Positions 2,855-59,394 of a stretch of 64,000 bases of DNA are shown one piece after another. Position numbers and translations under genes: made by a program. The DNA is from Bacteroidota bacterium (GTDB taxonomy: Bacteria > Bacteroidota > Bacteroidia > Flavobacteriales_C > GCA-002722245), in assembly GCA_026390935.1 (NCBI GenBank), contig JAPLEZ010000152.1, positions 1,293 through 65,292 on the forward strand. The letters run 5' to 3'. The notes under the pieces are model-generated. The model saw only the letters and a list, made by a program, of their open reading frames with translations. It was not told the origin of the DNA and made no database searches. Numbering within the stretch: position 1 is the stretch's first letter; each line of letters begins with the position of its first letter.

Positions 2855-2925
2855 AGACCCATGGTGTAATGGTAGCACTGCACATTTTGGTTGTGTATGT
2901 CTAGGTTCGAGTCCTGGTGGGTTTA
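2855..2925 (+). tRNA. tRNA-Gln (anticodon UUG)
   Basis: Cloverleaf folded by hand: acceptor agaccca/tgggttt (one G-U), D-arm gtgt-aatggta-gcac, anticodon stem gcaca/tgtgt with loop ttttggt (anticodon TTG), T-arm ctagg-ttcgagt-cctgg; closely resembles Bacteroidetes tRNA-Gln. Confidence 0.85.
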
Positions 2926-24910: not shown

Positions 24911-25073
24911 ACGATTTCCTTCAGTGTGGATGAGTATGGGTTTCCCTCTCGGAGGAGAGGGGTGCGTTGGAAAGTGTGTTGGCAGGGAGATGGACTTTTA
25001 CTTCCTAGCTCCGTGAAGTTTTAGAGCAGCGTAACTTCGCGGAATCTTTTATTGAGGCTTGCAGCCTCTCTTT

Positions 25074-28434: not shown

Positions 28435-28683
28435 TTACTGTTGCAACAAATTATACAATTGATCTTTTAGAAATACACGATGAGTTCTTAATTCATTCAA
28501 ATGTTCGTCGATGGCCACTTCTGCGCCACTTTCAATGCGATGAATATGATTATCGGTTTTGTCATAATCATCAAACAGCTTTTTGAAATGAGCATTTTGC
28601 ATTTTTAAATCGTGAATTTTCTCTTTGTATTGAGGGAATTCCTGAGCAAGATTATGTTTTTCCATAGCTTTAATTTTCTTCAA
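28435..28683 (-). CDS. DUF465 (YdcH-like) family protein
   Basis: 82 aa; HNLAQEFPQYKEKIHDLKMQNAHFKKLFDDYDKTDNHIHRIE matches the DUF465 pattern. Confidence 0.7.
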   Translation of the reverse strand: MKKIKAMEKHNLAQEFPQYKEKIHDLKMQNAHFKKLFDDYDKTDNHIHRIESGAEVAIDEHLNELRTHRVFLKDQLYNLLQQ

Positions 28684-28775
28684 ATTTACATGGTAAATGA
28701 GAAGTGAATTATGAGCCAGGTCAGGAGGATGACTGTATTTGATCAGCTATGCGTGAATCAATGCTGCAATTTTTT

Positions 28776-28886
28776 CCTCGCGCGCGTCTGTGACGCGTGC
28801 GCATTTAGGAAGGCATTTGTAATGCCTATTATTAAAGCAATACAATTGCTAAGATAAGTCCGCACGCGTCACAGACGCGCGCGAGG
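28776..28886. mobile_element. MITE-like palindromic element with 28-bp terminal inverted repeats, inserted at proS 3' end
   Basis: Left arm cctcgcgcgcgtctgtgacgcgtgcgca (28776-28803) and right arm its reverse complement with 1 mismatch (28859-28886); flanked by 22-bp direct repeats (28753-28774, 28894-28915; 20/22 identical, two mismatches near the ends) that both encode the proS C-terminus. Confidence 0.65.
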
Positions 28887-28887
28887 C

Positions 28888-30150
28888 TCACCCGTGAATT
28901 AATGCTGCAATTTCTTTGATGGTTTCTTCGCCTTTGTAAATCATCACTCTTTTCTCCCCTGTAGCGCGAATCTCCAATTCAAATTCTTTGGCTTCATTGA
29001 ATCGTCGACCTATGATGATTTTAAATGGAATACCAATTAAATCAGAGTCTTTGATTTTCACGCCCATACCTTGGTCGCGGTCGTCCACTAAAGTAGTCAC
29101 GCAAGCTTTTGTGAACGCTTTGTCGAATTCGTCAACAACAGCTTCAAACTCCGAACCTGCATATTTTAAAGGGATAATCGACAATTGATATGGAACAACA
29201 GCAACAGGCCATTTGATGCCTTTTTCATCGTTGTTTTGCTCAATGATGGCATTGATGATTCTGCTTACACCTATTCCGTAACAGCCCATCACCACAGGTT
29301 CTTTTTTACCTTCTTTGTTCACGAAGTTGAAGTTCATCGCGGCAGAATATTTCGTGCCGAGTTTGAAGATGTGACCTACTTCAATGCCTCTGAATATTTC
29401 GTGCGTAGCCGAATATTTCTCGACTTCATTTTCTTCAATTTTTACTACAACGCCTTTCTCTTCAATGAAATAATCTTCACCGAATTTGGATAATGCTACA
29501 ATTTCTTCGGAACCATCTCCGCCAATTTCGCCCGGATCGGCAGCAATACCAATCACTTTCAAGCCTAAACGTTTGAAAATAGCAAAGTAAGCATCGCGCA
29601 AAGCATTGTATTCTCTGTCTAAATCTTCATTGGAAATATGAAAGCTGTATGCATCTTTCATCATGAATTCTTTTCCGCGCAAGAGGCCGTTTTTAGGACG
29701 CATTTCATCGCGAAACTTTCTGCCGATTTGGTACAAGGTAAAAGGAAATTGTTTGTAGGACGATACTTTAGAACGGGCTAAATCAATGACTACTTCTTCG
29801 TGTGTAGGACCGAAACAAAACTCTCTTTCATCGCGGTTTTTAAATTTCAACATCTCTTTTCCGTAAGCATTCCACCTTTCCGATTCTACCCACAGTTCTT
29901 TCGGTTGCACAATAGGCATCGCTATTTCCTGACAGCCGATGGCGTCCAGTTCTTGACGGATAACCGTTTCAATTTTTTGCAACACTTTATTTCCCAAAGG
30001 AAGAAAGTTGTATAATCCAGCCGATACCTGTTGGATCAATCCAGCTTGTATACATAGCTTGTGACTTGTGGCGTCGAGTTTTTCGTTAACCGTTCTTTCG
30101 GTGTGGATGAATGCTTTTGAATACTTCATGATATTAATTTGAAAGGGCAA
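28888..30150 (-). CDS. proS: proline--tRNA ligase (bacterial-type without editing insertion)
   Basis: GPTHEEVVIDLARS, KFRDEMRPKNGLLRGKEFMMKDAYSF class II motifs; C-terminal anticodon-binding domain; probable start at MKYSKAF. Confidence 0.85.
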   Translation of the reverse strand: MPFQINIMKYSKAFIHTERTVNEKLDATSHKLCIQAGLIQQVSAGLYNFLPLGNKVLQKIETVIRQELDAIGCQEIAMPIVQPKELWVESERWNAYGKEMLKFKNRDEREFCFGPTHEEVVIDLARSKVSSYKQFPFTLYQIGRKFRDEMRPKNGLLRGKEFMMKDAYSFHISNEDLDREYNALRDAYFAIFKRLGLKVIGIAADPGEIGGDGSEEIVALSKFGEDYFIEEKGVVVKIEENEVEKYSATHEIFRGIEVGHIFKLGTKYSAAMNFNFVNKEGKKEPVVMGCYGIGVSRIINAIIEQNNDEKGIKWPVAVVPYQLSIIPLKYAGSEFEAVVDEFDKAFTKACVTTLVDDRDQGMGVKIKDSDLIGIPFKIIIGRRFNEAKEFELEIRATGEKRVMIYKGEETIKEIAALIHG

Positions 30151-31145: not shown

Positions 31146-31244
31146 TCTTTTTTTAGTGTTGAATGTTGAATTATGAATGTTGAATAGAGGTCACTTTCAA
31201 TAGCACGACTTTATTCAAAATTCAACATTTAAAATTTATAATTA

Positions 31245-32191: not shown

Positions 32192-32860
32192 TTACTTAGC
32201 TGTAATGATGATTTCCACTCTTCTGTTAGCGGCAGTTTCTTTTTCGTTGATGGCTGCAGGAAAGATCATTCTCGTATTGCCAAAGCCTTTTTTATCAATT
32301 CGGTTGGCTTTGATCCCGTGTTCCATTAAATACATTTGTACAGCCTGACAGCGGTCTTCGGATAGTTTTTGGTACGCTTCGGTGTTTGGTGATCCCGGAC
32401 CGTTGACATGTCCCTGAATAGAGATTTTTACGGTAGGATTTTTTTTAAGAAAGGCCACCAATTGATCCAATTCGGGAAAAGACTTTTCTATGAAAACCGC
32501 TTGGGATTCAACAAAGCGTACGTGTTGCAAAACGTAAACCTGCCCGGTGTCAATGCTTGCGCCAGCTTCATTTAAAGAGAATTCTTTCTTTTTGTAAATT
32601 CGCACAATTTCATTGCTTTCTTCTTGCGCTATTGTTATTTTTTTTGTTTCGCGTTGTTTCCCATATTTCACACAGTGATCGCAAAAACAGCGGCCGCTTA
32701 AATCAAGTTTAGTGGAATCCTGCGCTGAGAGAGCTGTTATAAAAAGAGAAGAAAGAATAAGAAAGTAAAGCTTTAGATCCTGAAACAAGTTCAGGATGAC
32801 ATTAGCAGCCCATTCTTTAATATACATTTTCATTTTTTGAGTATCGTTTACATTTGTCAT
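32192..32860 (-). CDS. OmpA family protein (start uncertain)
   Basis: C-terminal OmpA-like domain (KLSEDRCQAVQMYL...ANRRVEIIITAK); N-terminus overlaps a palindromic element, several candidate starts. Confidence 0.7.
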   Translation of the reverse strand: MTNVNDTQKMKMYIKEWAANVILNLFQDLKLYFLILSSLFITALSAQDSTKLDLSGRCFCDHCVKYGKQRETKKITIAQEESNEIVRIYKKKEFSLNEAGASIDTGQVYVLQHVRFVESQAVFIEKSFPELDQLVAFLKKNPTVKISIQGHVNGPGSPNTEAYQKLSEDRCQAVQMYLMEHGIKANRIDKKGFGNTRMIFPAAINEKETAANRRVEIIITAK

Positions 32861-32886
32861 CCTGAACTTGTTTCAGGATCTAATTA

Positions 32887-35610
32887 TTAATAATTCAAAT
32901 TTGGCGATAGCCATTTTTCAATAAATTCAACTGATTCACCTTTGCGTTGCGCGTATTGTTCCACCTGATCTTTTTCAATTTTACCGATACCGAAATACTT
33001 GCTTTGCGGATGTCCGAAATACCAGCCACTTACAGAGGAAGCAGGATACATGGCCAAACTATCTGTTAATTGGATACCAGCATTTTTCTCAGCATCGAGC
33101 AATTTAAAGATGGTCCATTTTTCGGTATGATCCGGACAAGCTGGATAGCCCGGTGCCGGACGAATTCCTTTGTATTCTTCTTTGATCAGATCTTCGTTGC
33201 TTAATTTTTCCTGAGCATCATAACCCCAAATTTCTTTACGTACTTTTTCATGCATGAATTCAGTGAAAGCCTCAGCCAATCTATCGGCTAATGCTTTAAG
33301 TAAAATGCTGGAATAGTCGTCGTGATCCTTCTCAAATCTTTCCAAATGAGGTTCAATGCCCAAACCTGTAGTAACTGCGAAAGCGCCCATATAGTCGGCC
33401 AAGCCTGTTGTTTTAGGAGCAACGAAATCGGCTAGCGACATGTTGTAAGCATCGTCGGTTTTTTTCGATTGCTGACGCACCATGTGAAATTTATCCAATA
33501 CATTTTTGCGTGTATCATCGGTGTACAATTCAATGTCGTCACCAACTGCATTAGCAGGCCACAAGCCAATTACGGCTTTATTGGTCAACCAATTTTCGGC
33601 AACAATTTGTTTCAACATTTTTTGCGCGTCGTTGTACACTGTTGTTGCTTCAGCACCTACTACTTTGTCTTCTAAAATTTTAGGGAATTTTCCGTGGAGT
33701 TCCCAGGTTTGGAAGAAAGGAGTCCAATCGATGTAAGGAACAATTTCTTCCAGTTTAACATCGGTGATGGTTTTAACTCCGAGGAATTTTGGTTTTACAA
33801 TATCACTCGCTTTCCATTCAATAGGGAAGTGGTTGGCTTGTGCTTCTTCAATGGTGATGGTATCTTTTTGTGCTTTTTTCTTGGCGTGGTTGATGCGCAT
33901 ACGGTCGTACTCGGCCTGTACATCTTCAATGTATTTCGCTTTGTTATCACCTAACAATGAGTTGGCAACAGTAACGGCGCGGGAAGCGTCAAGTACGTGA
34001 ACGGCTTGATTTCCGGTATAATGCTGATCAATTTTAACGGCAGTGTGCACTTTTGATGTTGTAGCTCCACCAATCAACAATGGAATTTTAAATCCTTCAC
34101 GTTCCATTTCTTTGGCTACGTAAACCATTTCATCCAAAGACGGAGTGATTAATCCGCTCAAACCGATAATATCTACATTGTGTTTTTTAGCTTCGGCCAG
34201 AATTTTATCGCAAGGAATCATCACTCCTAAGTCGATGATTTCATAGTTGTTACAAGCTAAAACAACACCTACAATATTTTTACCGATATCGTGCACATCG
34301 CCTTTAACTGTTGCTAACAATACTTTTCCTGCAGAGGTGTTGGTTCCTTCGGCTTTGTCGGCTTCCAAGAAAGGCAGTAAGTAAGCGACGGCTTTTTTCA
34401 TTACACGAGCGCTTTTCACCACTTGTGGCAAAAACATTTTTCCGCTTCCGAATAAATCTCCAACAACATTCATTCCGTCCATTAACGGACCTTCGATGAT
34501 GTGCAGCGGACGTGCGTATTTGTGGCGCGCTTCTTCCACGTCGATTTCAACGAAGTCAGCAATACCTTTTACCAATGCGTGTTCCAAGCGTTTTTCAACT
34601 GTTTCAGATCTCCAGGCGTCATCTGCTTTTTTCTCTTTCACGCCACCTTTTACTGATTCGGCAAATTCCAATAATCTTTCAGTAGCATCGTCTCTTCTGT
34701 CCAATAAAACATCTTCAACGCGTTCCAATAAATCTTTGTTGATGTCGTCGTAAACCTCCAACATAGCAGGATTCACGATACCCATGTCCATACCTTCTTT
34801 AATGGCGTGGAACAAGAAAGCCGAGTGAATAGCTTCACGCATAGGATTATTTCCTCTAAAAGAAAACGACACGTTACTTACACCACCGCTCACGTGAGCA
34901 GCAGGTAGGTTTTCGCGCACCCAGCGGGTAGCTTGGAAGAAGTCGATAGCATTTTTTCTGTGCTCCTCCATCCCTGTAGCGACAGGGAAAATATTTAAGT
35001 CGAAGATGATGTCTTGCGGAGCGAAATTTACTTTCGGACCAACCAATAAATCATAAGATCGTTTTACAATTTCAATTCTTCTTTGATAATTATCGGCCTG
35101 TCCCACTTCATCAAAAGCCATAACAATTACGGCAGCACCGTACTTTTTGACTTGTTTTGCTTCCCAGATGAATCTTTCTTCCCCCACTTTTAAGGAGATG
35201 GAATTCACGATACATTTTCCCTGCACGCACTTCAATCCTTCCTCAATGATTTCCCATTTGGAAGAATCGATCATGATGGGCACCTTAGCGATATCGGGCT
35301 CTGCGGCGATCAAGTTCAAAAAGCGTTTCATGGATTCAACACCGTCAATCATCCCTTCATCCATATTGATGTCGATGACTTGCGCGCCACCTTCCACCTG
35401 GTCGCGAGCAACCACTAAAGCTTCATCGTATTTTTCTTCTTTGATCAAGCGCAAAAATGCTTTTGATCCGGTAACGTTGGTACGTTCACCAATGTTGACG
35501 AAATTGGTTTCAGGAGTTACAATTAATGGCTCCAATCCGCTCAATCGCAGAGAGGGATAATTGTGCCATTTGTATTTGTAATCGCCGGGATAATCAGGAT
35601 GCAGAGGCAT
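32887..35610 (-). CDS. metH: methionine synthase, pterin-binding + cobalamin-binding + AdoMet-activation modules (split MetH)
   Basis: Pterin-binding (ERTNVTGS...), B12-binding ([15 protein letters not shown]), and C-terminal activation domain; lacks the N-terminal Hcy domain, which is encoded separately upstream. Confidence 0.85.
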
Positions 35611-37120: not shown

Positions 37121-37225
37121 GTTTCTTATTTTGCCCTTTGCAGGGTTGGAATTAGCACCTGTTCCAGTAACGGAATGGTTGCCAAGGTTTCGTAGGGCCA
37201 GTCCCTCCACCTTTCTTAATAAGCA
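37121..37225 (-). promoter_or_regulatory. SAM-I (S-box) riboswitch aptamer
   Basis: Minus-strand sequence CUUAUUAAGAAAGGUGGAGGGACUGGCCCUACGAAACCUUGGCAACC...GGUGCUAAUUCCAACCCUGCAAAGGGCAAAAUAAGAA matches the SAM-I consensus (P1-P4, kink-turn, pseudoknot nucleotides) upstream of a methionine synthase operon. Confidence 0.9.
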
Positions 37226-59206: not shown

Positions 59207-59250
59207 CAGTTATTTTGATCCATCCAGTACGTCTTGCATATTGCTTCCCT

Positions 59251-59369
59251 CTTTAAGAAGAGGGGTGTGAAAGCCTTTTGCGCGGAAGCAGGGAGATGGA
59301 CTCGTGCTAATCCATCTCCCTGCTCACACACTTTCCTAACGCACCCCTCTTCTTCAAGAGGGAAGCAGT
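59251..59369. repeat. GC-rich doubly palindromic element (MITE-like)
   Basis: About 27-bp terminal inverted repeats (gcttccctctttaagaagaggggtgtg / cgcacccctcttcttcaagagggaagc), each arm itself a hairpin, flanking a perfect 13-bp-stem hairpin gcagggagatgga-N10-tccatctccctgc; degenerate partial copy at 24931-24985. Confidence 0.6.
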
Positions 59370-59394
59370 GTGCAAAAAGCCTCCGTTAGTTATA

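Follow-up and report, generated by a model that had tools for sequence, protein, structure and literature searches.

The 64,000-nt stretch of Bacteroidota DNA analysed here (positions 1,293 to 65,292 of contig JAPLEZ010000152.1, assembly GCA_026390935.1; hereafter the window) carries a proS gene for prolyl-tRNA synthetase (ProRS) and, starting 2 nt past the proS stop codon, a 111-bp palindromic element. A first-pass annotation of the sequence had described this element as a miniature inverted-repeat transposable element (MITE) inserted at the end of proS with duplication of its target. The features of the locus are listed below, REP standing for repetitive extragenic palindromic sequence and REPIN for a REP doublet forming a hairpin.

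28435..28665, minus strand: DUF465 gene, 76 aa from the ATG at 28665, with a conserved TAAATTTG box at 28681-28688
28747..28775, minus strand: orphan copy of the proS 3' end, AAAAAATTGCAGCATTGATTCACGCATAG, reading ..KIAALIHA*, abutting the end of the element away from proS
28776..28886, no strand assigned: REP doublet (REPIN-like element), two inverted REP hairpins and a 55-nt core
28776..28803, plus strand: REP unit 1, with a CCTC head, a 10-bp stem and a 3-nt loop (CGCGCGCGTC tgt GACGCGTGCG)
28804..28858, no strand assigned: core, 55 nt, AT-rich, with two small hairpins
28859..28886, minus strand: REP unit 2, inverted, the unit closest to the proS stop codon
28887..28917, minus strand: live proS 3' end, AAAGAAATTGCAGCATTAATTCACGGGTGAG, with the TGA stop at 28888-28890, abutting the element
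28888..30129, minus strand: proS, encoding a 413-aa bacterial-type prolyl-tRNA synthetase without INS domain, an exact match to MCX6183213.1

The element is a near-perfect palindrome, and its anatomy is as first described: the 28-nt arms (28776-28803 and 28859-28886) differ by one mismatch, and the 55-bp core between them has small hairpins of its own, which we locate at 28812-28826 (ggcatTTGTaatgcc) and 28837-28849 (gcaatACAattgc). The expected number of chance matches to the arm 24-mer in a shuffled window is 0, and the complementarity of the arms extends, at 82%, to 50 nt each, leaving 11 nt between them. Folded as RNA, the region reaches -81.5 kcal/mol (z = -8.1); the element alone, folded as single-stranded DNA, reaches -49.5 kcal/mol (z about -12). 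Each arm is also a hairpin by itself (CGCGCGCGTC-tgt-GACGCGTGCG, with a 10-bp GC stem and a TGT loop; -12.1 kcal/mol for REP unit 1), and it is this property that changes the classification of the element from MITE to REP type. The layout is that of a REP doublet, with two inverted palindromes (the 28-nt arms), a 55-nt spacer and a whole that folds into one hairpin. No open reading frame (ORF) lies inside the 111 bp, and no recombinase is found there or among the neighbours, which are proS, DUF465, DUF5698/DUF2179 and TsaB-like genes. A search of the region against Rfam gave nothing at the gathering threshold and, at E values up to 10, generic long-hairpin matches far below it.

Genome searches for other copies, which the first-pass annotation had proposed, show that the arms belong to a dispersed Bacteroidota repeat family. 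An exact 20-mer of the arm occurs at 11 loci in the species-representative genome set, including nine Bacteroidota loci from at least eight metagenome-assembled genomes (MAGs), the carriers being Flavobacteriales, Bacteroidales, Hymenobacteraceae and unclassified, with GC contents of 38-56%. Two loci (L numbers designate loci fetched from other genomes), L002 from Blastocatellia and L005 from Rhodobacteraceae, were rejected as family members, since they have no similarity in head or flanks and are chance matches. Family members, gathered at four or fewer mismatches to the arm motif, are found singly, as inverted doublets or in tandem arrays whose periods are 84-128 nt, often beside other small hairpins, and at one locus (L004) 17 copies lie within 2.7 kb. 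Every family copy lies outside ORFs of 120 aa or more. The idea that copies sit at gene 3' ends agrees with many of them, which are 13-100 nt from such an end. The related genome CH-Oct18-48 has at least three REP loci (L009 twice and L023).

An alignment of 24 distinct REP units was used to build a covariance model of the family. The outermost stem pair covaries in this alignment (C:G, G:C and A:T), and the heads are CCTC, GCTC, GCTG or GTTA. The model matches REP unit 1 with 51.7 bits (E = 1.5e-11) and REP unit 2 with 47 bits; it matches these two arms and no second REP copy in the 64-kb window, in agreement with the earlier view that this inverted-repeat family is distinct from the window's other palindromes. 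A core shared across copies, as for a whole doublet replicating as a unit, was not seen: the doublet at L009 138-260, in the related genome, has the same arms and a core that is partly homologous to the one studied here. Scanning metagenomes with a 22-mer of the core returned the orthologous L020 contig and a match in a DnaC-like gene that was rejected as chance, in a scan of low power that missed a known JGI carrier contig. The REP 20-mer has no match in viral contigs.

The L004 array is also of note in its own right. Its 2.7 kb (1-2700) are non-coding and consist of tandem composite units, similar to bacterial interspersed mosaic elements (BIMEs), that repeat every 97, 84, 128 or 322 nt; a unit comprises the REP hairpin and one or two further hairpins (CGCGTTTGYAACGCG, GCTCGTCAGAGACGAGC).

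The family is linked to a transposase by L008 (MAG RA.bin61), where an ORF at 744-1310 scores 98 bits against the NCBIfam model REP_Tyr_transpos (NF047646, cut-off 80) and has the same REPs on both sides. Its 188-aa product contains the motifs SNHLHMI, KVWQDG and YIHQNPV, and thereby bears the signature of subclass 2.6 (group 5) of the REP-associated tyrosine transposases (RAYTs, or TnpA_REP), which is NH[LIV]H / WQ / YIH[QN]NP with a mean length of 179 aa (PMC6006769). This subclass is Bacteroidetes-specific and is flanked by genome-dispersed 'atypical secondary structures' (PMC6006769). L008 therefore shares signature, length, phylum and flanking dispersed hairpins with subclass 2.6 as defined by Quentin et al. 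(2018, PMC6006769), with the differences that the hairpins are compared by description and that the link to the window's genome passes through the RAYT of another MAG. A truncated RAYT copy also adjoins REPs in L006.

Another transposase was considered as the cognate RAYT and rejected. Encoded within L009 4530-5400, it is a Y1 transposase of 242 aa that falls below the NCBIfam cut-off, has subclass 2.1-like motifs (NHVH / WQ / YVELNP) and is bracketed by terminal inverted repeats (TIRs) of its own, about 30 nt long (TACGTCTGTCCCCTATTTGTC...), in a 'TIRYT'-like arrangement. A REP singlet is found 145 nt away from it, and the genome concerned is the one closest to the L012/L022 loci.

The element thus belongs, as a REP doublet, to a Bacteroidota family of REPs with a link to group 5 RAYTs, and is of a known kind; judged from sequence, its arms are REPs and the whole is a unit of the REPIN/BIME type. 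With REPINs and BIMEs (Bertels & Rainey 2011, PMC3116915; Nunvar 2010, PMC2817692) it shares the inverted REP pair, the short spacer, the length of about 110 bp, the extragenic position by a gene 3' end, the occurrence of the family as doublets, singlets and clusters, and the RAYT flanked by REPs in L008. It differs from them in its CCTC/GCTC head, which is not GTAG, in its pure-GC stem and 3-nt loop, in its apparently low copy number (one in 64 kb; at least three loci in the related genome), in its variable core, and in the direct repeat that flanks the window copy, the REPIN literature reporting none. The CGTC/CCTC-tagged REPs of Di Nocera et al. (2013, PMC3733652) share the unpaired CCTC-type head, the 9-10-bp stem, the head-outward dimers, the occurrence in Bacteroidetes and the location downstream of ORFs, sometimes touching the stop codon. 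In those REPs the stem begins with A/T positions, the loop measures 4-5 nt and a CCA tail is present, and no transposase was found for them (PMC3733652), whereas the family described here has a GC-only stem, a 3-nt loop and an association with RAYTs.

That the element at the end of proS is an insertion is shown by the empty sites of relatives. In L016/L017, whose proS DNA is 77.5% identical to that of the window, the stop codon is followed by 84 nt and then DUF465, with neither element nor duplicate. L015 (proS 77.6%) also lacks the element and has a different downstream gene, while L024 and L025 (87.1% and 86.2%) lack both the element and the DUF465 gene. The same element, in the same orientation, is found in a clade with proS about 83% identical to the window's (L012, L013, L014, L020, L021, L022, L023, L028, L029, L030 and L031). 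The insertion proposed by the first-pass annotation is thereby borne out, and the comparison of proS 3' ends that it had called for reveals a site polymorphic for presence and absence, with empty sites here and other copies of the repeat elsewhere. The proS-DUF465 gene order is kept in L012, L016, L020 and L022. In the closest relative, L018 (proS 88.5%), the DUF465 gene is absent and an unrelated 134-bp palindrome lies 10 nt past the stop codon. Given this different palindromic element in L018, palindromic insertions seem to favour the 3' flank of proS as a hot spot. The L018 palindrome (2774-2907, also found in L019) has perfect 31-nt arms (CTCCGCGCTCACGGCTTCGCCGGCGCGGAAT) and CACAC on both sides.

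The direct repeats on either side of the element, reported at first as 22 bp with 20 identities, are real and somewhat longer. Positions 28752-28775 and 28893-28916 are identical at 22/24 positions without gaps, at a spacing of 141 nt, and if one gap is allowed the repeats extend to 28747-28775 (orphan) and 28887-28917 (live), a length range of 24-31 nt, and touch both ends of the element. Their local alignment score (39, against a shuffle mean of 12) was not equalled in any of 2000 shuffles, and the orphan is truly a copy of the end of proS, as had been claimed. Both of the C-termini noted earlier are seen in frame, the live copy translating as KEIAALIHG* and the orphan as (EE)KIAALIHA*; the repeat covers the last eight codons of proS. 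Overall, orphan and live end are identical at about 25/31 positions (about 80%), and the mismatches cluster in the last 6-7 nt, at the stop-codon end (GGGTGAG versus GCATAG). Either the origin of one copy from another allele or an imprecise secondary deletion would explain this cluster.

In a MAFFT alignment the orphan and the DNA beyond it are colinear with the native gene end and downstream DNA of the empty site in L016. Because of this colinearity, and because the distance from the orphan stop to the DUF465 ATG (81 nt) is close to that from the true stop in L016 (84 nt), the orphan occupies the place of the native gene end; by this comparison it is most simply the displaced native end of proS, still joined to its native intergenic DNA. 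Relatives share the TAAATTTG box, which lies 16 nt upstream of the DUF465 ATG, whether or not they carry the element. This conservation suggests that DUF465 has its own promoter, the box being one that we take to be a promoter element from its likeness to the Bacteroidetes promoter consensus.

A MITE would explain some of these features. In that reading a DDE transposase acting on the 28-bp terminal inverted repeats would have made a long staggered cut, leaving a target site duplication (TSD) of 22-31 bp, and the terminal inverted repeats, the small size and the direct repeats abutting both ends would all follow; long and variable target duplications occur in some elements of the IS4/IS1634 group. 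However, no direct repeats flank the element copies of the L020/L012 clade, nor seven other sites of the family (L009 at two sites, L006, L011, L010, L001 and L003). Since other copies lack flanking repeats, the duplication is specific to the window locus and is not a TSD of the family. Single arms often occur by themselves or in tandem arrays, which is unlike MITEs, no insertion sequence (IS) with these ends was found, and the linked transposase is of the HUH/Y1 type. The L012/L020-type loci moreover have a partial proS-end copy on the other side of the element, that of the stop codon. Known MITEs (Correia/NEMIS, MITEAba12; PMC6382973) share the small size, terminal inverted repeats and presence/absence polymorphism, and differ in that the family here has no family-wide TSD and no parent DDE IS, its arms being autonomous hairpins that also occur singly or in tandem. 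The MITE with a 22-bp TSD proposed by the first-pass annotation is accordingly very doubtful.

Its other suggestion, site-specific integration into a gene 3' end, is at most possible: the repeats do touch both ends of the element, and two deeply diverged lineages carry it at this one gene end, but the element has no recombinase. Integrative elements that use gene 3' ends, such as the islands in tRNA and tmRNA genes, share with this locus the flanking gene-end repeat, the intact ORF and the recurrence at the same target. The differences are that the element here is 111 bp long and without integrase, that its repeats are imperfect, especially at the stop codon, and that the sister clade has its partial copy on the gene side, without flanking repeats. 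Diversity-generating retroelement repeats, integron attC sites, dif/Xer sites and group II introns were also rejected, there being no reverse transcriptase, R'/R'' boxes or dif-like core, and the repeats being too short.

At the L012/L020-type loci, a truncated copy of the proS end (CGCAGCATTGCTTAAG or ACACGGCATTGATAG), of significant similarity, lies between the stop codon and the element, and a stretch of about 95 nt with a REP remnant in it follows the element. On the right of the element, a possible third remnant of the proS end was considered and rejected, its similarity not being significant under three scoring schemes (p about 0.1-0.2).

The window element is identical to that of L020 at 109/111 positions. 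The proS genes of the two are 82.8% identical, their 4-fold degenerate sites are saturated (39%), and their intergenic DNA is barely alignable. In the 4.4-kb alignment of window and L020, the element is the sole source of 40-nt windows with at least 39/40 identities (2/88). Within the L020/L012 clade, where 4-fold identity is 80-95%, the element has drifted by 2-7 differences, with uncompensated changes in the arms, and the 95 nt adjoining it are 87-95% identical, so that it evolves roughly neutrally there. A single base separates the window copy from the ancestral element inferred for that clade. Window and L018 are 50% identical at 4-fold sites, and a neutral orphan predating even their split could not have stayed identical to the live end at about 25/31 positions. 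Taken together, the 109/111 identity against saturated proS, the drift in the clade and the likeness of the orphan lead us to infer that the element and the abutting duplication reached the window's lineage recently, probably after its split from the closest sampled relatives; they indicate that the element was, in all likelihood, not simply inherited from a common ancestor with the L020 clade.

The strong conservation of these 111 nt, the most conserved of the region, could also be that of an old, fixed structural element under selection, whether a terminator, an mRNA-stabilising hairpin or a protein-binding site, to which the flanking repeat would be unrelated. The very stable hairpin right at the stop codon is in keeping with such a role, as is the terminator-like combination of first hairpin and U-rich tail: on the proS strand the hairpin of REP unit 2 is followed by ACUUAUCUUA, a site scored as terminator-like on the minus strand. 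REPs downstream of genes do affect mRNA stability and termination (PMC3733652). Yet the arms of L012, L022 and L028 have uncompensated changes and a 2-nt deletion, with a drift of 4-6%, and the closest relatives and the outgroup are without the element; this drift and this absence weaken the case for an old selected element. A neutral orphan older than the window-L020 split could not have remained about 80% identical, and repeats that abut the element on both sides point to a common origin with it. On balance we think it improbable that the element is an old fixture of the locus.

A recombinase-free, homing-like route has also to be weighed. A cassette made of the doublet and a piece of the proS end may have re-entered the same gene end between lineages, regenerating the ORF, either by Campbell-type integration of one 141-nt unit or by homology-facilitated illegitimate recombination via 16-24 nt of homology, and the duplicate gene end would be its scar. 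The repeats abut both ends of the element with a period of exactly one such unit, but no recombinase is associated with it and 16-24 nt are marginal for RecA-dependent exchange. The differences between the repeats are greatest at the stop end, as would be the case for a foreign allele, the live HG* ending matches other lineages, and the C-termini of the window's sub-clade vary (HG, HN, KG and an extended form); among 45 cluster members, however, none was found with an allele that ends in IAALIHA*. The same element, orientation and gene end recur in two lineages whose synonymous sites are saturated, and in both a partial copy of the proS end adjoins the element on its left, although the L020-type order (live end, partial copy, element) is unlike a simple Campbell product. 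Finally, the last 225 nt of proS are nearer to the L020/L028 clade (86-88%, versus 82% in the first 990 nt) while identity to L018 falls (85% versus 90%), but this mosaic signal is weak (p about 0.04, uncorrected), and the proS DNA beside the element is about 85% identical to the L020 clade, with no co-transferred tract matching the 98% of the element. We consider such a route unlikely. Were it true, a REPIN-like element would be spreading horizontally at a fixed locus without transposition.

Errors of assembly could in principle mimic the arrangement, the junction of element and orphan being then a chimeric join of two strains in the MAG. The source is indeed a MAG, and 141 nt is the largest k-mer of some metagenome assemblers, which we judge to be a coincidence. 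In an assembly graph with k=141, neither a cycle nor a join can result from a repeat of 24 nt, and a chimeric join needs a shared junction k-mer, so that the repeat itself must be real. The element has been assembled independently at this position in at least ten other contigs (ENA, JGI, Logan, NCBI), none of which has an orphan of the window type. An assembly error is therefore unlikely, and for the chimeric join in particular we see hardly any probability.

The explanation we favour, with reasonable but far from complete confidence, is that a REPIN-like REP doublet arrived here and, in doing so, left behind a duplication at the junction, with proS kept intact by it. The element would be non-autonomous, a member of a REP family that flanks a group 5 (subclass 2.6) RAYT in at least one genome; we infer that a RAYT mobilised it in the window's genome. 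The doublet would have arrived recently at the proS stop codon of the window's lineage, and the flanking 24-31-nt repeat would be a one-off junction duplication of the proS end formed on that occasion, the repeats being tied to the arrival because they abut both ends of the element. The gene-side copy would then provide the functional C-terminus and stop, and the downstream copy would be the displaced native end; because the duplication included the last eight codons, proS would have stayed intact and the insertion been tolerated. Import of a foreign allele, imprecise secondary deletion, template switching at the hairpin and a pre-existing tandem duplication are all possible mechanisms for the duplication. 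In the proS transcript a very stable hairpin would follow 2 nt after the UGA, upstream of the putative DUF465 promoter, and folding predictions suggest that it serves as the 3'-end structure of proS, either terminator-like or as a barrier to exonucleases; a cost of the doublet to translation termination is possible on the same grounds.

Several observations weigh against this explanation. Neither a Y1/RAYT gene nor a second REP copy was found in the 64-kb window, and the only Y1 transposase in a close relative (L009 4562-5290) falls below the RAYT cut-off. The GTAG-type 5' guide tetranucleotide is absent from the foot of the hairpin, making this a family without the classical head. HUH/Y1 (IS200/IS605-like) transposition is not known to generate duplications of its targets; it does not explain the flanking duplication, for which an unspecified repair or recombination event is needed. 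The clustered difference between the two stop-codon ends is unlike a clean duplication. Random transposition would not be expected to hit one and the same gene end in two deep lineages; there is a hint that the element travels with the proS end, or targets it, as both lineages have a proS-end fragment immediately to its left. Lastly, an old element could look recent if it were under strong purifying selection.

Some further features of the locus and the window may be recorded. The ProRS assignment of the proS product is by TIGR00409 (498 bits); archaeal-type ProRS is the usual form in Bacteroidota. A close homologue of the window ProRS is annotated at NCBI merely as 'aminoacyl--tRNA ligase-related protein', and the host is Flavobacteriales-like. 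A second 111-bp palindrome, at 32773-32883, has perfect 29-nt arms with an arm hairpin ATCCTGAA-caag-TTCAGGAT; it ends 3 nt from the stop codon of a 907-aa metH-like minus-strand ORF (32887..35610) and also extends over the start predicted for the following ORF, and no further copies of it were found in the window or the fetched loci. A 142-bp palindrome at 59234-59375 has 34-nt arms that are 91% complementary and CCCTCTT..AAGAGGG hairpins, and 54 nt of its interior recur at 87-89% identity at window positions 24942-24994 and in L027 (4189-4241), constituting another small repeat family. The intergenic DNA between the YitT/DUF2179 and OmpA-domain genes contains, at 31150-31243, an imperfect inverted repeat that is AT-rich and 79% complementary, with TGTTGAAT motifs. 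The sole Rfam matches at the gathering threshold in the window are a SAM-I riboswitch (37123-37225, minus strand, 85 bits) and a tRNA (2855-2925, plus strand).

The REP/REPIN-RAYT system is well described in Proteobacteria, while in Bacteroidota it is mostly known as 'atypical secondary structures' near group 5 RAYTs. This locus supplies a concrete REP sequence for group 5 RAYTs, with stem covariation, a doublet form and a clean presence/absence polymorphism. A hairpin of about -80 kcal/mol, 2 nt past a stop codon and followed by an in-frame orphan tail, can also mislead gene callers and assemblers. What calls for explanation is a doublet about 98% identical across lineages with saturated synonymous sites, with partial duplicates of the gene end in both. 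If these duplicates are scars of its arrival, they bear on how REPINs insert.

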